Below, piece after piece: positions 4,861-34,104 of a stretch of DNA of 64,000 bases (positions are counted from its first letter, which is position 1; each line of letters opens with the position of its first letter). A program made the position numbers and the translations under genes. Source of the stretch: Mustelus asterias (lineage: Eukaryota); NCBI RefSeq assembly GCF_964213995.1, contig NW_027590159.1:248001-312000 (forward strand), read 5' to 3'. The notes under the pieces are model-generated. The model was not told the origin of the DNA, did no database searches, and worked only from the letters and a program-made list of their open reading frames with translations.

Positions 4861-4908
4861 ACTGAAATCATACAGATTTCCTCACCCTAAATTAGAAAGA
4901 TTAATGAA

Positions 4909-4981
4909 CGTTTCTGCCCGGTTTTGAACTGGGAACCTTTCGCGTGTGAGGTGAATGTGATAACCAATACACTACAGAAAC
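4909..4981 (-). pseudogene. tRNA-Val(CAC), moderately degenerate
   Basis: cgtttctgcccggttttgaactgggaacctttcgcgtgtgaggtgaatgtgataaccaatacactacagaaac; A box and T arm mutated. Confidence 0.88.
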
Positions 4982-5813
4982 AGGTGACAGCAATGACAGC
5001 AAATCCGCCTCTCTGCAATGTTCAACTGCGCTGTGTTGCTGCAGTTTCAAATGGTTCGACTGAGAGGCCATGTCCCTTGTTTCAGGAAGATAACCGTTAC
5101 TGTCAATATGATTGCTCAACTTATCTTGAACTTCAAAATTTTAAAGCGATCGCCTGTCAAATATCAAAGCAACAATGAATTCCACTCATTCATTAATGCA
5201 TTATTTTCATCTTCCTTCGAATAATCTCAACCAATTGTGCTCATTAATGAAAGCAAATTACTGCAGATGATGGAATCTGAAACCAAAGGAGAAAATGCTG
5301 GAAAATCTCACAAGGTCTGGCAGCATCTGTAAGGAGAGAAAAGAGCTGACGTTTGGAATCCAGATGACATTTTGCCAAAGCTCACTTTACAATTGTACTC
5401 AGTATTTGTTTCAATATTTAACCTCAATACATTGTGTCACACATATGACATCATTCTGAAGAGAATATCTCTGAAATTGAATCACGAGTATCACTTGTGT
5501 CTGTCTTGTTGAGCACACACTCCTATTAGACATGTTTCAGATGGTGATTCGCTATTTTAGTTTGCACCTAAAAACCCATTAAATTCTGTTGTCCACTGAA
5601 CAAGGTGATACTATGTGCACGTTGTCAAAATAGAGACGTTTCTTTCCTGTCAGTGCGTCAAAAAGAAATCAGCATTTCTTATTCACAGAAACCATTTGAG
5701 TTTGAGGTCAGAGCAAAGATAATATTGTTGTAATATCGAGATTCGGATAATGTTCAGCAACGAACTGAAATCATACAGGATTTCCCTCATCTTCCATGAG
5801 AAAGCTTAACGAA

Positions 5814-9427: not shown

Positions 9428-9714
9428 TTGAGTCGATCGGTTTGGGAATCTATCACTTAGTTTGCTTGTCTCTGTGTTGATTCTGTGCAGTATCCGAGGT
9501 TTCCATTGAACACGGAGTTGGAGTTATTCATGCATTATCATGGTTAGCAACGCAAACTAATAGGTGTCATAAATCTGCAGAATAATTTTGTGCTGTATTG
9601 TTCTTTGTTGTTCTTTGTAATTCTGGATTTATAACGAGGGACGTTAGAATTGATGTCACTGTCTGGGCATATATCTATATGGTTATATATCCTTATTCGT
9701 GTTGGTCTTTCCAC

Positions 9715-9976: not shown

Positions 9977-10261
9977 GTTGCCGTGTGTGTACCTGTTTCC
10001 AATATGCGGCTGTCCACGGGAGAGCACTCTCTGATCACTTATGAAAGATCACAATCGCTTTCTAAAGGAAGCGTCTGTTCTGGTATCGCCAGTATACACA
10101 CCGAGCTCCTCATTCACTGCTCAGAGCCGCGAATGTACCGAAACGGCTCAAGGTTTTTTACACTGCAGCGGGAATCTCAACCTGAAACAAAGCACTTTTC
10201 ACTTGCCCATGAAAGATTTGAAGGTGACAGACAGCGCCGTGTATTACTGTGCACTGAGAGC
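9977..10261 (+). pseudogene. T-cell receptor alpha/delta-type variable (V) gene segment, frameshifted pseudogene
   Basis: Acceptor ttttcag ends at 9976. GEHSLITY (Cys23-equivalent reads Tyr) is in frame 2, LFWYRQYTHRAP (TGG at 10081) in frame 1, and STFHLPMKDLKVTDSAVYYCALR in frame 3. An RSS follows directly. Confidence 0.9.
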
Positions 10262-10300
10262 CACAGTGAATGAGGCTCCCGCGGGCCTCATACAAAATCT
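10262..10300 (+). promoter_or_regulatory. RAG recombination signal sequence, 23-bp spacer
   Basis: Perfect heptamer CACAGTG (10262-10268), 23-nt spacer (10269-10291), nonamer ACAAAATCT (10292-10300; 7/9 to ACAAAAACC). Confidence 0.93.
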
Positions 10301-10832: not shown

Positions 10833-10922
10833 GGCTCGTTGGTCTAGGGGTATAATTCTCGCTTAGGGTACCTCGCCCCATTAGCATGCGAGAGGTCCTG
10901 GGTTCAAATCCCGGACGAGCCC
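10833..10922 (+). tRNA. tRNA-Pro(AGG) with an 18-nt insertion at the canonical intron site (10869-10886)
   Basis: GGCTCGTTGGTCTAGGGGTATAATTCTCGCTT-AGG-G[TACCTCGCCCCATTAGCA]TGCGAGAGGTCCTGGGTTCAAATCCCGGACGAGCCC. Exons differ from vertebrate tRNA-Pro at two sites; one breaks D-stem pair C12-G23, so functionality is uncertain. Confidence 0.88.
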
Positions 10923-11216
10923 CGTTTCGACCAAAATATTGTGTTCAAAAGGAGATATTTTGATTTGTTTAAGGTGCAAACGGCGGGATGGCTTTCTGCT
11001 GACTGGCTCCGAAAAAGAGTCAGAAAGGCCCAGAATTTTACAGCACGGATAGAGCCCACTGGGACACCCACATGGCAGGCGCGGACACCCATCATGTCTG
11101 CGCCTGCCACGTGACAGCTGGACGGGAAGCGTTAGTTCTGATTCTCGCTGCACAGATACTTCCAGAAATGCTGACATAACCCAGCATTTTCTGTTTTTAT
11201 TTCAGATTTTGAAAGT

Positions 11217-17030: not shown

Positions 17031-17103
17031 GGGCCAGTGGCGCAATGGATAACGCGTCTGAATACGGATCAGAAGATTCCAGATTCGACTCCTCACTGGC
17101 TCG
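17031..17103 (+). pseudogene. tRNA-Arg(ACG), probable pseudogene
   Basis: GGGCCAGTGGCGCAATGGATAACGCGTCTGAAT-ACG-GATCAGAAGATTCCAGATTCGACTCCTCACTGGCTCG; 4 changes from consensus, including C32A and a broken T stem/B box. Confidence 0.88.
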
Positions 17104-18011
17104 CTGTGATAGTTTAACAATAGTTCAAAAATTCCATATTCGTGTGGATGAAAAATGTGTTTTCACAAATTTTGGACCAATTCAGAGAAATGTTGACCAA
17201 ATGCAGTCAGCTTCTCTGAAGAAATTTATCTTAGCTAATAATTTTTCAAAACAATGTTGACAATTTTAAGAAAGAAATTACTGATAAACTTCAATTAATT
17301 TTTTAAAAAAAATAGTTTCTTTAAATGACGAATTCTCGTTAAAGTATTTGGGAAAAATATGTTAGCAAGTTTAAGCTACCTTTTAAAAAGTTGGAAATTT
17401 CTCGAAAAATACGTGGAAACATTACATTTTTCAAAATGGTGAAAACATTTTCTAAAAGATTGATGAACTCTGCGGAAGAATTTCTTTTAAACATGTTTAA
17501 TTTTAAGAAGCAAAATACACAGAAATGTTTTTTAAAAGTTGACAAATTTCAGTTAAATCAGATGGAGGAATTTCTTTGGAGTAAGTTTAGTTTTTAAAAG
17601 TTCAAATTAGCCAGAATTTTCTGGTTTGTGATGCTCGGATTGTTGTCTAATGGAGCGAAGGAGATTGAGGAGCGACTTAATCGAGGTGGACTAGATTAGG
17701 GCAAGTTTAGAGGGGGAGGGACAAGTTTTAAGATATTGGGCAAGGCGGGGGCGAAGAAGATTTGGAAGCAACATTTTTTCCACAGCGAGTGCTCAGGACC
17801 TGGAACTCATTGCCTCCGAGAGTGTTGGATGCGGTCAATTTAAATAATAGAAATTCTGAGGTGGACATGGACCTCCTGAGAAAGGAGATGCGTCTCCAGG
17901 AACATTCTAAGTCAGATAGATGGATCTCCTCGGTAACATTGAATCTGAAGATCAACCTGTAGCAAGACACCCCTCCCCGGCCCCGCCCCCACCAACTGTT
18001 GAGATGTTTGA

Positions 18012-19724: not shown

Positions 19725-20961
19725 TCTGAGAAAGCTTAATGAACGTTTCTGCCTTGGTTCGATCTGGGGATTTTTGGAGTGTTATGCGAACCTGATAACC
19801 ACTGCACGAAAGCAACAGCTTAAAAGGCACTGGAGCAAATCTGCCTGTCTGCAATGTTCAACTACGCTGTGTTGCTGCAGTTTCCGATGGTTCGACTGAG
19901 AGCCCGTATGACTTAATTGACGAAGATAACCGTTACTTTCAATCTGATTGTACGACTTATCCAGAAGATCAAAAAATAAAAGAGTTCGTCTCGCAAATAT
20001 CTAAGGGAGCAATAATTTCTGCCCCTTCATTAATGCATCATTCTCAGCTTTCATCGAATAGTCTCAATCAATTGTACTAAGTAATTAGAGCAAATTATTG
20101 CGGATGAGAAAAGACTAAATGCTCCAAAATCTCCCAATGTCTGACAGCACCTGTAACGAGTGAAACGGGTGGACGCTTCGAGTCCAGATGACACTTTATC
20201 AAAGCTCATTGTACAATTGTACTCAGTATTTGTTTCACTATTTAATATCAATGCATTATTTAACACATATGTCTTCATTATTAATTGAATATCTCTGAAA
20301 TTGAACATCACTGAATTGCAAACGTAACTGACCAACAGAACGAATCGAATCACCGGCTAATACACTTCGCAATTTTGGGATTGATTATCGTCAGCATTTA
20401 CATAAAGTCAACGACATTTAAACGGAGAAGAGTCCAGAATTATCTGTTCGCGACACTTGAGCCTTTTTTATTATGGACGTGAAACATTCAGGCGCATAAA
20501 TTCCGGCCCTTTACATGAAAGTCCAGTAGATCCGCACTGAGTCTCGATTCCCTCATCGGTCTGAGGGGCGTGAAACATTCAGGCACCTAAATATTTTTTT
20601 TAAAGAATCTTCTGTGAAATGTGCGCCATTTCATCTAGTTCCCTTACAGTATCAGTTGTAACTTTCTTTTTGAGCACACACTACTGTCAGATATTTCAGA
20701 TGGCGATTGACCATATTAGTCTGCACCTATAAATCCATAAGGTTCTGTTTTAGACTGAGCGGGATGGGAATAAGTGCTCAGTGTCAAAATCGAACTTTCC
20801 TGTCACTGCGTCAAAAAATACGTTTCTTACTTCACAGAAAGCATTTGAGGGTGATGTCAGCGCAATCAAAACATGCCTTTAAAATCGAGGCTCGGATAAT
20901 GATGAGCAATGAACTTAAATCAAGCAATTTTCCCTTACCCGACATGGTAAAGCTTAATGGA

Positions 20962-21034
20962 TGTTCCTGCCCGGTTTCGAACCGGGGATTTTCCGCGTGT
21001 TAGGTGAACGTGATAACCACTACACTACAGAAAC
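20962..21034 (-). tRNA. tRNA-Val(AAC), best-preserved array copy (possibly a pseudogene)
   Basis: Minus strand GTTTCTGTAGTGTAGTGGTTATCACGTTCACCT-AAC-ACGCGGAAAATCCCCGGTTCGAAACCGGGCAGGAACA. A and B boxes are intact and the acceptor stem pairs; one A-C mismatch in the anticodon stem. Confidence 0.8.
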
Positions 21035-22181
21035 AGCTTGAAGGGCATTTCAGAAACTCTGCCTGGCTGCAATGTTGAATTACGCTGTGTTGCTGCAGGT
21101 TCCGATGGTGAGACTGAGAGCCCATGGCACGGAATTCAGGAAGATAACCGTTACTTTCAATCTGATTGCACGACGTATCCCGAACATCAAAAGTTAAAAG
21201 CGTTCGTCTCGCAAATATCTAAGGGAGCAATGATTTCTGCCCATTCATTAATGCATCATTTTTATCTTTCTTCGAATAATCTCAATCAATTGTACTCAGT
21301 AAAGAAGCAAATGATTGCGGATTCTGGAATCGTAAACGAAAAGGGAAAATTCTGGCAAGTCTCACAAGGACTGACAGCATCTATAAGGAGTGAAAAGAGC
21401 TGACGTTTCGAGTCGAGCTGACATTTTGTCAAAGCTCATCAATTGTACGCAATATTTGTTTCAATATTTAGTACCAATGCATTATTTGACACATATGTCT
21501 TCATTTCTGGAATTGAACATCACTGAATTGCAAACATAACTGACCAACAAAATGAATCGAGTCCCGAGTAATGCAGATCGCAATTTTAAGATTGAAAATA
21601 GTCAGCTTTTTAAAAAAAAAGTCAACTACATTTAAATGGAGGAGAATCAAGAATTATCTGTTCGTGACACTTGAGCCTTTTTATTATGGGTGTGAAACAT
21701 TCAGGTGCATAAATTCCGGCCCTTTTCAGGAAAGTCCAGTCGATCCGCACTGAGTCTCGATTCCCTTATCTGTCTGAGTGGCTTTTCCTGTTTCTCAGTG
21801 ATGAAAAACGATTTTAAAAAAAGATCCTTCTGTGAAATGTGCGCCATTTCCTCTAGTTCACTTACAGTATCACTTGTATCTGTCTTTTTGAGCACACGCT
21901 ACTATCAGATATTTCAGATGATGATTAATCATATTAGTCTGCACCTCTAAACCCATTCAATTCTGTTGTAGTCTGAACGAGATGCGAATGCGTGCTCGGT
22001 GTCAAAATCGAATATTCCTGTCAGTGCGTCAAAAAAAAATCGTTTCTTATTTCACAGAAAGCATTTGAGGGTGATGTCAGAGCAATGATAACATGCCTTT
22101 AACATCGAGGTTCGGATAACGTTCAGCATCAAACTGAAATCAAGCAGTATTCCCTTACCCGACATGAGAAAGCTTAATGAA

Positions 22182-24638: not shown

Positions 24639-27600
24639 AAGACCATAAGACATAGGAGCGGAAGTAAGGCCATTCGGCCCATCGAGTCCACTCCACCATT
24701 CAATCATGGTTGATTTCAACTCCATTTACCCGCTCTCTCCCCATAGCCCTTAATTCCTCGAGAAATCAAGAATTTATCAATTTCTGTCTTGAAGACGCTC
24801 AACGTCTCGGCCTCCACAGCCCTCTGTGGCAATGAATTCCACAGACCCACCACTCTCTGGCTGAAGAAATTTCTCCTCATCTCTGTTCTAAAGTGACTCC
24901 CTTTTATTCTAAGGCTGTGCCCCCGCGTCCTAGTCTCCCCTGTTAATGGAAACAACTTCCCTACGTCCATCCTATCTAAGCCGTTCATTATCTTGTAAGT
25001 TTCTATCAGATCTCCCCTCAACCTCCTAAACTCCAATGAATATAATCCCACGATCCTCAGACGTTCATCGTATGTCAGGCCTACCATTCCTGGGATCATC
25101 CGTGTGAATCTCCGCTGGACCCGCTCCAGTGCCAGTATGTCCTTCCTGAGGTGTGGGGCCCAAAATTGCTCACAGTACTCCAAATGGGGCCTAACCAGTG
25201 CTTTATAAAGCCTCAGAAGTACATCCCTGCTTTTGTATTCCAAGCCTCTTGAGATAAATGACAACATTACATTTGCTTTCTTAATTACGGACTCAACCTG
25301 CAAGTTTACCTTTAGAGAATCCTGGACTAGGACTCCCAAGTCCCTTTGCACTTTAGCATTATGAATTTTGTCACCGTTTAGAAAATAGTCCATGCCTCTA
25401 TTCTTTTTTCCAAAGTGTACGACCTCGCACTTGCCCACGTTGAATTTCATCAGCCACTTCTTGGACCACTCTCCTAAACTGTCTAAATCTTTCTGCAGCC
25501 TCCCCACCTCCTCAATACTACCTGCCCCTCCACCTATCTTTGTATCATCGGCAAACTTGGCCAGAATGCTCCCAGTCCCGTCATCTAGATCGTTAATATA
25601 TAAAGAGAACAGCTGTGGCCCCAACACTGAACCCTGCGGGACACCACTTGTCACCGGTTGCCATTCTGAGAAAGAACCTTTTATCCCAACTCTCTGCCTT
25701 CTGTCTGACAGCCAATCGTCAATCCATGTTAGTACCTTGCCTCGAATACCATGGGCCCTTATTTTACTCAGCAGTCTCCCGTGAGGCACCTTGTCAAAGG
25801 CCTTTTGGAAGTCAAGATAGATAACATCCATTGGCTCTCCTTGGTCTAACCTATTTGTTATCTCTTCAAAGAACTCTAACAGGTTTGTCAGGCACGACCT
25901 CCCCTTACTAAATCCATGCTGACTTGTCTTAATCCGACCCTGCACTTCCAAGAATTTAGAAATCTCATCCTTAACGATGGATTCTAGAATTTTGCCAACA
26001 ACTGAGGTTAGGCTAATTGGCCTATAATTTTCCATCTTTTTTCTTGTTCCCTTCTTGAACAGTGGGGTTACAACAGCGATTTTCCAATCCTCTGGGACTT
26101 TCCCTGACTCCAGTGACTTTTGAAAGATCATAACTAACGCCTCCACTATTTCTTCAGCTATCTCCTTTAGAACTCTAGGATGTAGCCCATCTGGGCCCGG
26201 AGATTTATCAATTTTCAGACCTTTTAGTTTCTCTAGCACTTTCTCCTTTGTGATGGCAACCATATTCAACTCTGCCCCCTGACTTTCCTGAATTGTTGGG
26301 ATATTACTCATGTCTTCTACTGTGAAGACTGACGCAAAGTACTTGTTAAGTTCCTCAGCTATTTCCTTGTCTCCCATCACTAGATTACCAGCGTCATTTT
26401 GGAGCGGCCCAATGTCTACTTTTGCCTCCCGTTTGTTTTTAATGTATTTAAAGAAACTTTTACTATCATTCCTAATGTTACTGGCTAGCCTACCTTCATA
26501 TTTGATCCTCTCCTTCCTTATTTCTCTCTTTGTTATCCTCTGTTTGTTTTTATAGCCTTCCCAATCTTCTGACTTCCCACTACTCTTTGCCACATTATAG
26601 GCTCTCTCTTTTGCCTTGATGCATTCCCTGACTTCCTTTGTCAGCCATGGCTGCCTAATCCCCCCTCTGATAACCTTTCTTTTGTTTGGGATGAACCTCT
26701 GCACTGTGTCCTCAATTACTCCCAGAAACTCCTGCCATTGCTGTTCTACTGTCTTTCCCATTAGGCTCTGCTTCCAGTCGATTTTTGTCAGTTCCTCCCT
26801 CATGCGCCTGTAATTACCTTTATTTAACTGTAGAACCTTCACATCTGATTCTGCCTTCCTTCTTTCAAATTGCAGACTGAATTCTACCATATTATGATCA
26901 CTGCTTCCTAAGTGTTCCCTTACTTTAAGATCTTTTATCACGTCTGGCTCATTACATAACACTAAGTCCAGAATAGCCTGTTCCCTCGTGGGCTCCATCA
27001 CAAGCTGTTCCAAAAAGCCATCCTGTAAACATTCAATGAATTCCCTTTCTTTGGGTCCACTGGCAACATTATTTACCCAGTCCACCTGCATATTGAAATC
27101 CCCCATGATCACTGTGACCTTGCCTTTCTGACATGCCCTTTCTATTTCGTGGTGCATTTTGTGCCCCTGGTCCTGACCACTGTCAGGAGGCCTGTACATA
27201 ACTCCCATTATGGTTTTTTTGCCTTTGTGGTTCCTCAACTCTACCCACACAGACTCCACATCGTCTGACCCTATGTCGTTTAGTGCTATTGATTTAATTT
27301 CATTTCTAATTAACAAGGCAACCCCGCCCCCTCTACCCACCCCTCTGTCTTTTCGATAGGTTGTGAATCCCTGGATGTTTAACTGCCAGTCCTGAACCCC
27401 CTGCAACCACGTCTCTGTGATGCCTACCACATCATACCTGCCAGTCACAATCTGGGCCACAAGCTCATCTATCTTGTTCCGGACACTGCGGGCATTTAAA
27501 TATAGCACCTTTAATTCCCTATTGACCGTCCCTTTTTGTTTTCGTAGTGTGGTGGACCTTGGTCTACTGAGCCTTTCCAGACACTGTGTCATATTTTGTG

Positions 27601-27700
27601 AGATGGGGACTATCGTAACCTCTCCTGAGTGCTGTCTTTTCGTGATTTTTTGTAATCCTAAGCAGCTACGCTTCCCACTGATTCCTTCACCTCTTGGTGA
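24639..27700 (-). mobile_element. CR1 LINE truncated just upstream of ORF2
   Basis: 3' tail ataagaccataagacatagg at the left end; host tandem-unit sequence on both sides; no ORF1. Confidence 0.96.
24716..27592 (-). CDS. CR1 ORF2p: APE endonuclease plus reverse transcriptase, uninterrupted (~958 aa from the first element-internal ATG)
   Basis: YLNARS, GITETW, MGDFN and SDH endonuclease motifs; NYRPISLTS, QGS and FADD RT motifs. The extra N-terminus of the 1057-aa track ORF is read-through from the tandem unit. Confidence 0.92.
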   Translation of the reverse strand: MTQCLERLSRPRSTTLRKQKGTVNRELKVLYLNARSVRNKIDELVAQIVTGRYDVVGITETWLQGVQDWQLNIQGFTTYRKDRGVGRGGGVALLIRNEIKSIALNDIGSDDVESVWVELRNHKGKKTIMGVMYRPPDSGQDQGHKMHHEIERACQKGKVTVIMGDFNMQVDWVNNVASGPKEREFIECLQDGFLEQLVMEPTREQAILDLVLCNEPDVIKDLKVREHLGSSDHNMVEFSLQFERRKAESDVKVLQLNKGNYRRMREELTKIDWKQSLMGKTVEQQWQEFLGVIEDTVQRFIPNKRKVIRGGIRQPWLTKEVRECIKAKERAYNVAKSSGKSEDWEGYKNKQRITKREIRKERIKYEGRLASNIRNDSKSFFKYIKNKREAKVDIGPLQNDAGNLVMGDKEIAEELNKYFASVFTVEDMSNIPTIQESQGAELNMVAITKEKVLEKLKGLKIDKSPGPDGLHPRVLKEIAEEIVEALVMIFQKSLESGKVPEDWKIAVVTPLFKKGTRKKMENYRPISLTSVVGKILESIVKDEISKFLEVQGRIKTSQHGFSKGRSCLTNLLEFFEEITNRLDQGEPMDVIYLDFQKAFDKVPHGRLLSKIRAHGIRGKVLTWIDDWLSDRRQRVGIKGSFSEWQPVTSGVPQGSVLGPQLFSLYINDLDDGTGSILAKFADDTKIGGGAGSIEEVGRLQKDLDSLGEWSKKWLMKFNVGKCEVVHFGKKNRGMDYFLNGDKIHNAKVQRDLGVLVQDSLKVNLQVESVIKKANVMLSFISRGLEYKSRDVLLRLYKALVRPHLEYCEQFWAPHLRKDILALERVQRRFTRMIPGMVGLTYDERLRIVGLYSLEFRRLRGDLIETYKIMNGLDRMDVGKLFPLTGETRTRGHSLRIKGSHFRTEMRRNFFSQRVVGLWNSLPQRAVEAETLSVFKTEIDKFLISRGIKGYGERAGKWS

Positions 27701-28986
27701 AGCATTCGTGAGACTCATTTTACAATTGTACTCAGTATTTGTTTCAATATTTAGTATCAATGCATTATTTAACATATATGGCTTCATTATGAATTGAATA
27801 TCTCTGAAATTGAATTTCACTGAATTGCAAACATAAGGACCAACAGAAGGAAGCGAGTCACCGGGTAAAGGAGATCGCAATTTTGACATTGATCATCGTC
27901 TGCTGTTAAACAAAATCAACTCCATTTAAATGAAAGAGATTGAAAAGACATCTGTTAGTTGCACTTAAGCCTTTTAATTATGGGCGTGAAACATTCAGGC
28001 GCATAAATGTTGGCCATCTTTAGGAAAGTCCAATCGATCCGCATTGAGTTTCGATTTCCTCATCTGGCTGAGTGCTGTTTCCTATTTCCTTGTTATGAAG
28101 AACGATTTCCAAAAAAAAAACATGTTGTAGGAAATGTGCGCCTTTTCCTCTAATTCGCTTACACTACCACTTGTGTCTGTATTTTTGAGCACACACTGCA
28201 ATTAGACATGTTTCAGATGGTGATTAACTCTGTTCGTCTGCACCTTTAAACCCATTATATTCTGTTGTAGACTGAAAGAGATGCTAATGTGTGCACACTG
28301 TCAAAATCGAAAATTTCCTGTCAGTGCGTCAAAGGAATCAGCATTTCTTATTTTACAGAAAACATTTGAGGCAGAGTTCAGAGCAAAGATAATATGGCTG
28401 TAACATCGAGATTTGGTTGATGTTCAGCAACGATCTGAAATCATACAGATTTCCCTCACCCTACATGGGAAAGCTGATGAATGTTCTGCCCGGTTCTGAA
28501 GCGGTGATCTTTCACGTGTTGGGCCAATGTGATAACCACAGAAACAAGAGAATGCGCCACGCTGCCAATTGGCCTGACTACAATGTTGAACTACATCGTG
28601 TTGCTGCAGGTTCTCATGGTCACATTGAGGGTCCATGTCAATTAATAGAAGAACAAATCCGTTATTTTCAACCTGATATATCAACTTATCTTGAACCTCA
28701 AAATAAATATATTCGATATATTTCAGATGGTGATTAACTACGTCAGTCTGCACGTCCAAACCCATTAAATTAATTTGTGGACTGCACGAGTTGCGAATAT
28801 GTGTATACACAATGGAGTTCTTTATTCCCTGCGTCCTCAAAGACAGCATTTCTGACTTTCCGAAATTCATTTGAGGCCGAGATCGAAGCCAATATAACAT
28901 GACCGTGACATCTGATTCGCATGAGGTTGAGCTATGAACTCACATCATGCAAACTTTGCTCATGCTTAATGGCACCGATCCAACAG

Positions 28987-29821: not shown

Positions 29822-30265
29822 GAGAGAGGAGCAGGAACAATTTGAATCTGTTCTCAGAACAACGAGCTGCACAGAAGAACATCAGAGAATAGGGAAGAGG
29901 TGTTGAAATGGACCATTTGCTCCTTCATTAGGGCCTGTTCCGCCATTCAGTAAAATCATTGTTGATCTCCATCACAGTAAGAAGTCTCGCAACACTAGGT
30001 TAAAGTCCAATCAGTTTACTTGGTCGCACGAGCTTTGGGAATACTGCTCCTTCATCAGGTGAGTGGAGAGTTGGGTTTAGAAACAGGGCATAGAAAGACA
30101 CAGACTCAATTGCAAGATAATGGTTGGAATGCGTGTCTTAACAGCGAATCAAGTCTTTACAGGTACAGACAATGCGAGTGGAGAGGGGGACAATGACAGG
30201 AGGAGGAAAGGTAAGTTTAAAATTTTCATTCACTTTTTTTTCCCTGTGTGTTTAAAGGGGCAATT

Positions 30266-31183
30266 ATGAGTGTGAGGCCAGTATGTTGTTCCCAATGTAG
30301 GATGTGGGAGGTCCTGGAGGCTCCTAGCCTCCCGGACGACTATATCTGTGCTGGGTGTGTTGAGCTGCGGTTCCTAAGGGACCATGTTAGGGAACTGGAA
30401 TTGCAGCTCGAGGACCTTCGCCGGGTTAGGGATAGTGAGGAGGTCATTGACAGGAGCTATCGGCAGGTGGTCACACCGGGACCACGGGAGGAGGGTAACT
30501 GGGTAACAGTGAGGAAGGAGAAAGCTCAGTTGATGGTGAGCACCCCGGTGGATGTGCCCCTTAATAATAAGTACTCCTGTCTGAGTACTACTGGGGTGGA
30601 CAGCCCACCTGGGGGAAGCAGCGGTGGCAGTGTCTCTGGAGCTGAGCCTGGCCCAGTAGTGCAAAAGGGTAAGGAAAGGAGGGTAGTGCTAATTGGGGAC
30701 TCTACGGTGAGGGGGTCAGATAGGCGTTTTTGCGGACACAGACGGGACTCTCGGATGGTGGTTTGCCTCCCTGGTGCAGGGGTCCGGGATGTCTCTGGTC
30801 GAGTCCCAGAAATCCTGAAGGGGGAGGGAGAGGAGCCGAAGGTCGTGATGCATATAGGTACTGCTGACATAGGTAGGAAGAGGGAAGGGGTCATGAAAAG
30901 AGAATATAGGGAGTTAGGTAGACAGCTGAGAAAGAGGAATGCAAAGGTAGTAATCTCGGGATTGCTGCCTGTGCCGCGGGAGAGTGAGAACAGGAATCGG
31001 TGGAGAATGAATGCGTGGCTGAGGGACTGGAGCAAGGGACAAGGATTTGGGTACTTGGATCATTGGGACCTCTTTAGGGGCAGGTGTGACCTGTTTAAAA
31101 AAGACGGGTGGCACTTGAATCCCAGGGGGACCAATATCCTGGCGGGAAGGTTGGCTAAGGCTACTGGAGAGACTTTAAACTAG
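30266..31183 (+). CDS. CR1 ORF1p with N-terminal Cys motif/coiled coil and SGNH esterase-like domain
   Basis: CSQCRMW...CAGC, heptad region LRDHVRELELQLEDL, GDS (VLIGDSTVRG), HIGTADIG, DGWHLNPRG. Confidence 0.9.
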   Translation: MSVRPVCCSQCRMWEVLEAPSLPDDYICAGCVELRFLRDHVRELELQLEDLRRVRDSEEVIDRSYRQVVTPGPREEGNWVTVRKEKAQLMVSTPVDVPLNNKYSCLSTTGVDSPPGGSSGGSVSGAEPGPVVQKGKERRVVLIGDSTVRGSDRRFCGHRRDSRMVVCLPGAGVRDVSGRVPEILKGEGEEPKVVMHIGTADIGRKREGVMKREYRELGRQLRKRNAKVVISGLLPVPRESENRNRWRMNAWLRDWSKGQGFGYLDHWDLFRGRCDLFKKDGWHLNPRGTNILAGRLAKATGETLN

Positions 31184-31188
31184 AAAGG

Positions 31189-34104
31189 TTGGGGGGAGGG
31201 AATCGGAATGAGGGGACTGAGAGCGAGGAGATTAGCTCGCAAATAGATAAGGAATGTAAACAGGGTAAGAGGGAGGTTAGACGAGTGATGGAGAAGGGAA
31301 GTGCTCAGGCTGAAGGTCTGAGATGTGTCTATTTTAATGCCAGGAGTGTAGTGAATAAAGTGGATGAGCTTAGAGTGTGGATTGCTGCTTCGAATTGTGA
31401 TGTGGTGGCCATTACGGAGACTTGGATGTCTCAGGGACAGGACTGGGTGCTTCAGGTGCCGGGTTTTAGATGTTTCAGGAAGGACAGGGAGGGAGGCAAG
31501 AGAGGGGGGGGGGAGTGGCACTGTTGATCAGGGATAGTGTCACGGCTGTAGAGAAGGTGGACGCCGTGGAGGGATTGACTACGGAGTCTCTGTGGGTGGA
31601 GGTTAGGAACAGGAAGGGGTCGGTAACGTTGCTGGGTGTTTTCTATAGGCCGCCCAATAGTAACAGAGATGTTGAGGACCAGATGGGGAAACAGATCCTG
31701 GAGAGATGTAGGAATAACAGAGTTGTCGTGATGGGAGATTTTAATTTCCCAAACATAGATTGGAATATCCCTAGGGCTAGGGGTTTGGATGGAGAGGAGT
31801 TTGTTAGGTGTGTCCAGGAGAGTTTCCTGACACAGTATGTGGATAAGCCTACTAGAGGAGAGGCTGTACTTGATCTGGTGCTGGCTAATGAACCTGGACA
31901 GGTGGAGGATCTCTCGGTGGGTGAGCATCTTGGGGATAGCGATCATAATTCTATCTCCTTCACGATAGCATTGGAAAGAGATAGGATCAGGCAGGCTAGG
32001 AAAGTGTTTCTCTGGAGTAAAGGGAAATACAGTGTCATCAGGGAGGAAATTAGACGGGTAAATTGGAAGGAGGCATTCTTGGGGAAAAGTACCGAAGGAA
32101 AGTGGAGGATTTTCAAGGAATGTTTGTCTGGAGCTCTGCATGACAACGTTCCGATGAGACAGGGGGGTGTTGGTAGGGTACGGGAACCGTGGTGCACGAA
32201 GGTTGTGATGAACCTGGTGAATAAGAAAAGAGAGGCGTACAGAAGGTTCAGAGAGCTAGGAGGTGTTAAGGATTTAGAGGAGTATACGGGATGTAGGAAG
32301 GAGCTTAAGAAGGAAATTAGGAGAGCGAGAAGGGGGTCATGAGAAGGCCTTGGCGGGTAAGATTAAGGAGAATCCCAAGGCTTTCTACAAATATGTCAAG
32401 AGTAAAAGGATGAGATGTGAAGGCATAGGACCCTTAAAAGGTGAAGGGGGAAAAGTTTGTGCGGAACCGTTAGAAATGGCGGAGCTGCTTAATGAATACT
32501 TTACCTCGGTATTCACGGTGGAAAGGGATCTGGGTGGTTGTACTGCTGGTTTGCGGTGGACAGAAAGGATCGAGCATGTGGACATAAAGAAAGAGGATGT
32601 GTTGGAACTATTGAATGGCATCAAGGTTGGTAAGTCGCCGGGACCGGATGGGATGTACCCCAGGTTACTGTGGGAGGCGAGGGAGGAGATTGCGGAGCCT
32701 TTGGCGATGATCTTTGCATCGTCGATGGAGACGGGAGAGGTTCCGGAGGATTGGAGGATTGCAGATGTGGTCCCTATATTCAAGAAAGGGAACAGGGACA
32801 GCCCGGGAAATTACCGACCGGTGAGTCTAACCTCAGTGGTTGGTAAGTTGATGGAGAGGATCCTGAGAGACAGGATTTATGATCATCTAGAGAAGTTTAG
32901 TATGATCAAAAGTAGTCAGCACGGCTTTGTCAAGGGCAGGTCGTGCCTTACGAGCCTGGTTGAGTTCTTTGAAAATGTGACCAAACACATTGACGAAGGA
33001 AGAGCGGTGGATGTGGTCTATATGGACTTCAGCAAGGCGTTCGATAAGGTCCCCCATGCAAGACTTCTTGAGAAAGTGAGAGGGCATGGGATCCAAGGGG
33101 CTGTTGCCTTGTGGATCCAGAACTGGCTTGCCTGCAGAAGGCAGAGAGTGGCTGTGGAGGGGTCTTTCTCTGCATGGAGGTCAGTGACCAGTGGAGTGCC
33201 CCAGGGATCTGTTCTGGGACCCTTGCTGTTTGTCATTTTCATAAATGACCTGGATGAGGAAGTGGAGGGATGGGTTGGTAAGTTTGCTGACGACACCAAG
33301 GTAGGTGGTGTTGTGGATAGTTTGGAGGGATGTCAGAAGTTGCAGCGAGACATAGATAGAATGCAAGACTGGGCGGAGAAGTGGCAGATGGACTTCAACC
33401 CGGATAAGTGTGTGGTGATCCATTTTGGCAGATCCAATGGAATGAAGCAGCAGTATAATATGAAGGGTACCATTCTTAGCAGTGTAGAGGATCAGAAGGA
33501 CCTTGGGGTCCGGGTCCATAGGACTCTTAAATCGGCCTCGCAGGTGGAGGATGCGGTCAAGAAGGCGTACGGCGTACTGGCCTTCATTAATCGAGGGATT
33601 GAGTTTAGGAGTCGGGAGATAATGCTGCAGCTTTATAGGACCCTGGTTAGACCCCACTTGGAGTACTGCGCGCAGTTCTGGTCACCTCATTACAGGAAAG
33701 ATGTTGAAGCCATTGAAAGGGTGCAGAGGAGATTTACAAGGATGTTGCCTGGATTGGGGGGCATGCCTTATGAGGATAGGTTGAGGGAGCTTGGTCTCTT
33801 CTCCCTGGAGAGACGAAGGATGAGAGGTGACCTGATAGAGGTTTACAAGATGTTGAGAGGTCTGGATAGGGTAGACCCTCAGAGGCTATTTCCAAGGGCT
33901 GAAATGGTTGCTACGAGAGGACACAGGTTTAAGGTGCTGGGGGGTAGGTACAGAGGAGATGTCAGGGGTAAGTTTTTCACTCAGAGGGTGGTGGGTGAGT
34001 GGAATCGGCTGACGTCGGTGGTGGTGGAGGCAAACTCGTTGGGGTCTTTTAAGAGACTTCTGGATGAGTACATGGGATTTAATGGGATTGAGGGCTATAG
34101 ATAG
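31189..34104 (+). pseudogene. CR1 ORF2 (endonuclease and RT) broken by two frameshifts
   Basis: Track ORFs 31189-31527, 31470-32342 and 32350-34104 are consecutive parts of one protein. The shifts fall in G runs at ~31504-31513 and ~32332-32336. Confidence 0.9.

Follow-up and report, generated by a model that had tools for sequence, protein, structure and literature searches.

A truncated TCR alpha/delta-type V pseudogene of Mustelus asterias and its probable spread with an IgM/tRNA duplication unit

Results

A 5'-truncated V exon ahead of a 23-RSS

We analysed 64 kb of the Mustelus asterias genome (G000, C127:248,001-312,000; the window), and coordinates below 64,000 are window positions. 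The features discussed below are listed here.

270 to 20389, no strand: part of a ~80-kb duplication unit, as far as compared (20 kb around 10 copies)
4908 to 4982, minus: tRNA-Val(CAC), in the duplicated block (ARAGORN)
9977 to 10074, plus: upstream (promoter-side) flank of the V gene, moved beside the remnant by deletion, not exon (aligns upstream of the leader of the intact paralog L032)
10075 to 10079, plus: junction of a 427-bp deletion, with 5-nt microhomology (comparison with paralogs)
10075 to 10261, plus: TRAV/TRDV-type V exon of which only the 3' part remains (FR2 to YYCALR), a pseudogene (local alignment to L032; Pfam V-set 20.3 bits, cut-off 26)
10130 to 10137, plus: approximate place of the family-wide 7-nt frameshifting deletion (alignment)
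10262 to 10300, plus: 23-RSS with consensus heptamer, 23-nt spacer containing an inverted repeat, and nonamer ACAAAATCT (pattern scan)
10833 to 10923, plus: tRNA-Pro(AGG), interrupted at the canonical position by an 18-nt intron and duplicated along with the V (ARAGORN with introns)
17031 to 17104, plus: tRNA-Arg(ACG), in the duplicated block (ARAGORN)
20958 to 21035, minus: tRNA-Val(AAC), first of a ~1.2-kb tandem series that is also found beside C71 copies (ARAGORN, Rfam)

The motifs named in the original prediction, WYRQY..AP, FHL..TDSAVYYCALR, a CACAGTG heptamer (10262-10268) and a 23-nt spacer, are all present, in the order WYRQY, FHLPMKDLKVTDSAVYYCALR, heptamer at 10262, spacer and nonamer (10292-10300). 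Its statement that the 64 kb hold no other V, D, J or C segment also stands, as a motif scan of C127:168-362 kb placed none within the window. The boundaries required revision. The V does not start at 9977: since 9977-10074 matches the flank 5' of the L032 leader, the remnant comprises 10075-10261 and contains one frameshift. The "at least two frameshifts" first proposed therefore reduce to the 7-nt deletion, the supposed second being the junction of the 427-bp deletion. This larger deletion took the ATG leader exon, the intron and the 5' V exon including the first Cys, which paralogs retain (split leader, intron and V exon are present in L003 and L032), and is common only to the window copy and a twin on C122. 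The presumed leader relic at ~9460-9500 is likewise abandoned, as that stretch sits upstream in paralogs having a true ATG leader. A functional V gene, with leader, open frame and both Cys plus Trp, was rejected: 0 of the 65 catalogued sites of the family described below are open. Elsewhere in the window, a 1058-aa ORF (24719-27892, minus strand) is a LINE ORF2 with endonuclease and reverse transcriptase, and 30221-33900 (plus strand) is a LINE-like element whose first ORF matches the GDSL/SGNH family.

The proposed TCR alpha/delta-type identity was confirmed by a V-set match, by TCR alpha matches in the PDB and by higher scores to TCR V than to IgM VH. Pfam V-set gave 55 bits for L032 versus 20.3 bits for the window remnant. 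The best single-V matches of L032 in the PDB were TCR alpha chains (60 bits), which multi-domain antibody constructs outrank on summed scores. Among local V exons, L032 scored 79 bits with a neighbouring TCR V and 43-47 bits with IgM VH; scores with NAR-TCR-supporting V and whale-shark TCR V were 46-54 bits. The protein database contained no relative of near length, and at longer lengths only bony-fish and reptile multi-V models, 31-43% identical. Judged by sequence similarity, the window V is of the TRAV/TRDV type, alpha and delta use being indistinguishable; in the nurse shark, V segments common to alpha and delta are described in the accessible text of PMC5931798. Relatives of the window V (L332-L338) also lie inverted ~35 kb behind several TCR-delta C genes, where the exons of L335-L337 are open. 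The accessible part of PMC12227049 mentions this inverted position of V behind delta loci.

Dozens of copies share one ancestral lesion

A pattern spanning the V end and heptamer matched 93 genome sites (control, 0), and a nonamer-side pattern matched 72. We catalogued 105 unique V sites, comprising 65 of the window family, 17 open exons and 23 others; three sites found later bring the family to 68. All 17 open exons fall outside it. The mid-exon is kept in 62 of the 65 catalogued copies, and every one of these 62 bears the 7-nt deletion or a derivative, while most family copies have a stop at the place where paralogs read CAG-TAT. A tree of 97 rows, from which 8 badly truncated sites were omitted, places the 62 family rows on one side of a branch with support 100/99. 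Since the frameshift is found in every copy that keeps the mid-exon and no copy is open, the gene was probably dead before it spread. Diversity across codon positions is 0.073/0.087/0.055 in the family (57 full-length copies) and 0.039/0.034/0.049 in the open group; the family values show no codon-position signature. None of the sequencing runs listed was recorded as RNA. Contigs of four runs on the paralog L003:1500-3200 were SINE-dominated and contained no usable joints.

Such a count could be inflated if most copies were artefacts of assembly, whether uncollapsed alleles or misjoins, and the real family were small. Most sites do lie on contigs of 0.04-3 Mb, and some V copies are identical or nearly so, the C122 twin matching the window copy at 99.8% over 16 kb at the V. 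We nevertheless consider this explanation highly improbable, given that C71, one contig of 20.4 Mb, holds 12 family sites, that mean family diversity is 0.05-0.07 with many private lesions, and that the twin is linked to a different IgM cluster. Some of the 68 copies may be alleles; with two alleles at every locus, the count would fall by half at most.

The V, tRNA genes and IgM clusters share a duplication unit

Upstream of the window, 57.5 kb from the V and head-to-head with it, lies an IgM cluster (C127:200.8-187 kb, minus strand) with a VH joined to D1, followed by D2, JH and three visible C exons; further C1 exons occur elsewhere on C127. The ~80-kb unit extends upstream through this cluster (C127:187-201 kb). 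C127:186-268 kb is colinear with C71:5.04-5.12 Mb, with 43.4 of the 57.4 kb between VH and V covered by blocks that are 85-97% identical. By markers for 85 IgM clusters, a lower bound, 31 of the 67 listed family sites have a cluster on the opposite strand, 41-73 kb upstream; the other three IgM-V layouts occur at 1, 3 and 1 of 67, and the sister V group has the layout at 1 of 39. On C71, 7 of 10 sites are head-to-head, against a null mean of 0.5 and a maximum of 4 in 5000. Three of six unmatched sites that were probed also proved positive and three negative, so that 34 of 67 sites have the layout, one of them being the C138 VH/TCR-delta chimera described below. The remaining 33 show no IgM at that distance in a marker list that is incomplete and on contigs some of which are short.

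The unit does not appear to have been copied as a rigid block. Among 25 of the 34 V-IgM pairs, those with a JH found by pattern, V distances and linked IgM distances were uncorrelated (Mantel rho -0.03 to -0.10, p 0.55-0.86, n=25), so strict co-duplication of V and IgM was rejected and conversion or crossover must be invoked. IgM introns group into three types separated by 15-20%, and the mean difference among the V regions is 5%. This mismatch probably reflects conversion or unequal crossover within the unit, an explanation that fits the C122 twin, which is 99.8% identical to the window copy at the V and 90% at IgM, with a different VD junction. In the assembly, IgM VH and D are joined, each with its own junction, at L104 (C127:200.4 kb), L265 (C242), L275 (C71:12.52 Mb) and L281 (C122:1.12 Mb).

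The tRNA genes reported for the window are likewise real, with five called by ARAGORN and four by Rfam, in addition to the intron-containing tRNA-Pro(AGG), which begins 533 bp behind the nonamer and was overlooked by the default ARAGORN and Rfam scans. Within the loci compared, this gene follows 52 of the 65 family copies. Its exons are near invariant (diversity 0.012-0.015, versus 0.07-0.08 for the V exon and flank) and its intron is far more diverse than the flanks (0.24 versus 0.08), a contrast suggestive of conversion between the tRNA copies. At C127:234,794, ARAGORN calls another intron-containing gene, a tRNA-Val(CAC) whose intron is 17 nt long.

Copies of the family lie in the antigen receptor complex

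A TRAJ array and TRAC membrane exon are located at C71:18.37-18.43 Mb. C71 thus links IgH clusters with TCR alpha/delta, as in the published antigen receptor complex (AgRC), and carries IgM clusters, three TCR-delta C genes and TRAJ/TRAC on one contig. C127 has IgM and no TCR C match; it is unplaced on a chromosome and may share that of C71. At C546:222-242 kb there is a second TRAJ array with a TRAC membrane exon, which differs from the C71 copy and represents an allele or a second locus.

The original prediction offered two readings of the isolated V. One was an orphon that could still be a RAG substrate. A true orphon would be inserted in an unrelated tRNA cluster outside the antigen receptor region, and both the lack of any other segment in the 64 kb and the unplaced status of C127 are compatible with this. 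The orphon reading did not survive the refuting condition set by the original prediction itself, and we now regard it as barely conceivable: the V-end pattern recurs at 93 sites, an IgM V-D-J-C cluster lies within 57.5 kb, C127 has more C1 exons, and the same V-tRNA-IgM layout is present on C71 together with TRAJ/TRAC. The other reading, a dispersed edge of the shark TCR alpha/delta locus interleaved with tRNA arrays, came close. The part that stands is the dispersed region, to which the V probably belongs through a family that is present on the TRAJ/TRAC contig.

TCR-delta mini-clusters and presumed germline joins

A TCR C exon with an open frame gave 19 matches at 82-100% identity, each with a membrane exon, at C71:7.14, 11.04 and 12.27 Mb and on 16 other contigs. 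The closest named proteins to the TCR C exon of this region are from Mustelus asterias (80-97% identity). J segments lie upstream of all 17 TCR-delta C copies sampled, in most cases together with a D that has a 12-RSS on one side and a 23-RSS on the other, and NAR-TCR cassettes were found upstream wherever checked; these J, D and NAR-TCR elements mark the unit as TCR-delta. The 19-copy unit has a D with 12/23 RSS, a J with 12-RSS, C1, a membrane exon and a NAR-TCR cassette, features of shark TCR-delta that are described in part in PMC6795676 and PMC12227049. As the flanks of the copies are 0.1-5.4% apart (most 0.1-5%), some may be alleles, and pairing all of them leaves about ten.

Several loci in this region have the form of completed V(D)J reactions. 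Perfect head-to-head signal joints, in which the 12-RSS of a TCR-delta D meets a 23- or 22-RSS, lie at L325 (C71:14,376,803) and L327 (C110:113,696), the latter followed by an inverted NAR D and V. TCR-delta V ends are joined directly to D at L321 (C850), L320 (C401), L176 (C436:213.7 kb) and L135 (C71:11.02 Mb). At L314 (C138:217.7-218.5 kb, minus strand), fusion has placed an open IgM VH with IgM D1 ahead of the 3' portion of a TCR-delta D, with bases added between them, and J-delta and C-delta come next, giving a hard-wired Ig/TCR chimera. Since the signal joints, the V-D joins and this fusion are all present in the assembly, they are presumably germline and not somatic.

Two further arrangements of signal sequences were noted: two tandem 23-RSS behind a NAR-TCR-supporting V (L140, C71:7,091,239-7,091,300) and nine identical 12-RSS in a repeating pattern at C31:21-50 kb.

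State of the family 23-RSS and nearby breakpoints

The window RSS is the best of five RSS-like sites at up to 3 mismatches in the 64 kb; no other of the five has a 23-nt spacer or follows a YYC. Among the 65 catalogued copies, 40 have the same RSS, 9 have CACAGTA and 16 are damaged. The proposed contrast between a decayed coding part and a preserved RSS is not significant, with a damaged RSS in those 16 of 65 copies and, in 57 copies, an RSS diversity that ranks at the 21st percentile of 7+9 windows from the flanks. Copies found by the RSS pattern are biased towards a good RSS, and for this reason 18 copies recovered through DNA similarity were analysed as a separate set; their RSS diversity lies at the 23rd percentile, with a nonamer that is invariant, though not significantly so. 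Selection on the RSS is therefore unsupported, as its diversity is not below the flanking background, and the good state of the window RSS is probably due mainly to the youth of the family (about 7% diversity). Palindromic-spacer deletions leave the former 23-RSS with a spacer of 12 or 13 nt at L214, L232, L233, L234 and L236.

A rival explanation holds that, with the coding part dead, the RSS is still occasionally cut by RAG in lymphocytes or in the germline and helps to remodel the complex, the route being inversional joining to the 12-RSS of an IgM D ~58 kb away or of a TCR-delta D. The geometry of V and IgM D obeys the 12/23 rule, 49 of the 65 copies keep CACAGTG/A, the 23-nt spacer and the family nonamer, and germline RAG products such as the signal joints on C71 and C110, the C138 D-D fusion and the V-D joins are common nearby. 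Breakpoints also point in this direction. The V is replaced by foreign DNA at -1 (C988), at -6 (C112 and C138, one event) and at about +14 (C2927) relative to the heptamer; by a post hoc count, these independent events are 3 of the 6 non-insertion breakpoints within -700 to +16, and a cryptic CACAGTT stands in register in the -6 donor. At the -6 junction, however, there are also 4 nt of microhomology, and a fold-back insert is present at the -1 junction, both features resembling those of microhomology-mediated end joining, and the clustering is explicable by fragility without RAG, given the inverted repeat in the spacer and the spacer deletions in 7 family copies. None of the 68 family sites takes part in a signal joint or in a V-D or V-J coding joint (in the one-mismatch search, among the matches listed, 100 of 122).

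The nonamer may also weigh against RAG use. Loss of a nonamer A-tract base would weaken RAG cutting, and position 7 is T in the window family and A in all 17 open paralogs, whose nonamer is ACAAAAACT or ACAAAAAGT. Taken together, we judge continued RAG use unlikely as the main account of the family, while rare germline cutting of its RSS is possible. Two V ends without an RSS match were considered as germline joints and rejected, their heptamers being destroyed. At L228 (C988:40,005), a family RSS without V is joined at the heptamer border to DNA of a multi-copy zinc-finger gene region (donors L293-L299).

Discussion

We read the window V, with good confidence, as a TCR alpha/delta V pseudogene that has lost its 5' part and belongs to a family of 68 sites, all dead, which likely spread as a passive passenger of a ~80-kb IgM/tRNA unit. 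The locus presents a truncation, a shared frameshift, membership of a single clade, a head-to-head IgM layout, colinear flanks and copies on the TRAJ/TRAC contig. We propose a model in which a V gene upstream of an IgM cluster would first have acquired the 7-nt deletion together with a stop codon. Multiplication and mixing of the unit by unequal crossover and gene conversion would have come next, and the window copy would afterwards have lost its leader and 5' exon. Selection would act on the IgM and tRNA genes, with the V and its RSS left to decay neutrally.

Taken alone, the window V is an ordinary pseudogene in a known complex; what appears to be new is its amplification within an IgM/tRNA unit and the multiplied, germline-edited TCR-delta. 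Our literature coverage, which lay largely outside subscription papers, yielded no paper in which V, tRNA and IgM form a duplication unit and none with many TCR-delta C genes in a shark. The 68 sites provide a neutral tag for the multiplication of IgM clusters in ~80-kb units with tRNA genes, later mixed by conversion or crossover, and this tag led to a TCR-delta in multiple mini-clusters, versus the translocon organisation given for shark TCR in the accessible parts of PMC6795676 and PMC12227049. As a speculative extension, which we judge less likely than not, the antigen receptor complex may be duplication-driven and edited by germline RAG, with TCR-delta converted from a single translocon to ten or more working Ig-like mini-clusters amid IgM, a RAG-built VH/TCR-delta gene of the sort put forward as an intermediate for VH-delta and TCR-mu, and the spare 23-RSSs of dead Vs sometimes cut, thereby seeding rearrangement. 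If the mini-clusters are expressed, allelic exclusion with many TCR-delta loci becomes testable; if the fused genes are expressed, so does the question of whether germline RAG creates VH-delta/TCR-mu-like genes.

Vertebrate TRA/TRD loci contain, as a general class, frameshifted or truncated TRAV/TRDV pseudogenes that keep a 23-RSS. The window V is likewise a frameshifted and truncated V with a surviving 23-RSS; unlike ordinary TRA/TRD pseudogenes and relics, its family reached dozens of sites after the gene had died, in company with antibody clusters and tRNA genes.

The closest published framework is the elasmobranch AgRC (Flajnik et al. 2025), in which, according to the accessible parts of PMC12227049, IgM mini-clusters and TCR alpha/delta share one chromosome, TCR alpha/delta V exons, some of them pseudo, lie between IgH clusters, NAR-TCR cassettes are interleaved, and TCR alpha/delta is described as a translocon. 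Its Table S1 gives at most one TCR-delta C model per species, and its main text does not use the words "tRNA", "pseudogene" or "orphon". Mustelus asterias resembles this arrangement in having TCR alpha/delta V between IgH clusters and interleaved NAR-TCR cassettes. It departs from the published AgRC in one dead V family of 68 sites with a fixed place in an IgM/tRNA unit, and in 19 assembled TCR-delta C copies.

Sharks have germline-joined IgH clusters, both VD and VDD, and the IgM cluster beside the window V is VD-joined in the same way, as are a few other linked clusters. Germline-joined NAR-TCR V are labelled "gj" in Table S1 of PMC12227049. Unlike germline-joined IgH and NAR-TCR, the C138 joining crosses loci, from IgM D to TCR-delta D, and intact signal joints are left behind in the region. 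In newts, the accessible text of PMC12698447 reports two TRD clusters on one haplotype. Newt and shark are thus alike in having extra TCR-delta J-C units, two in the former versus 19 assembled C copies in the latter. In VH-delta of Xenopus and birds and in mammalian TCR-mu, an IgH-type V is hard-wired to TCR-delta, a feature that these receptors share with the C138 gene.
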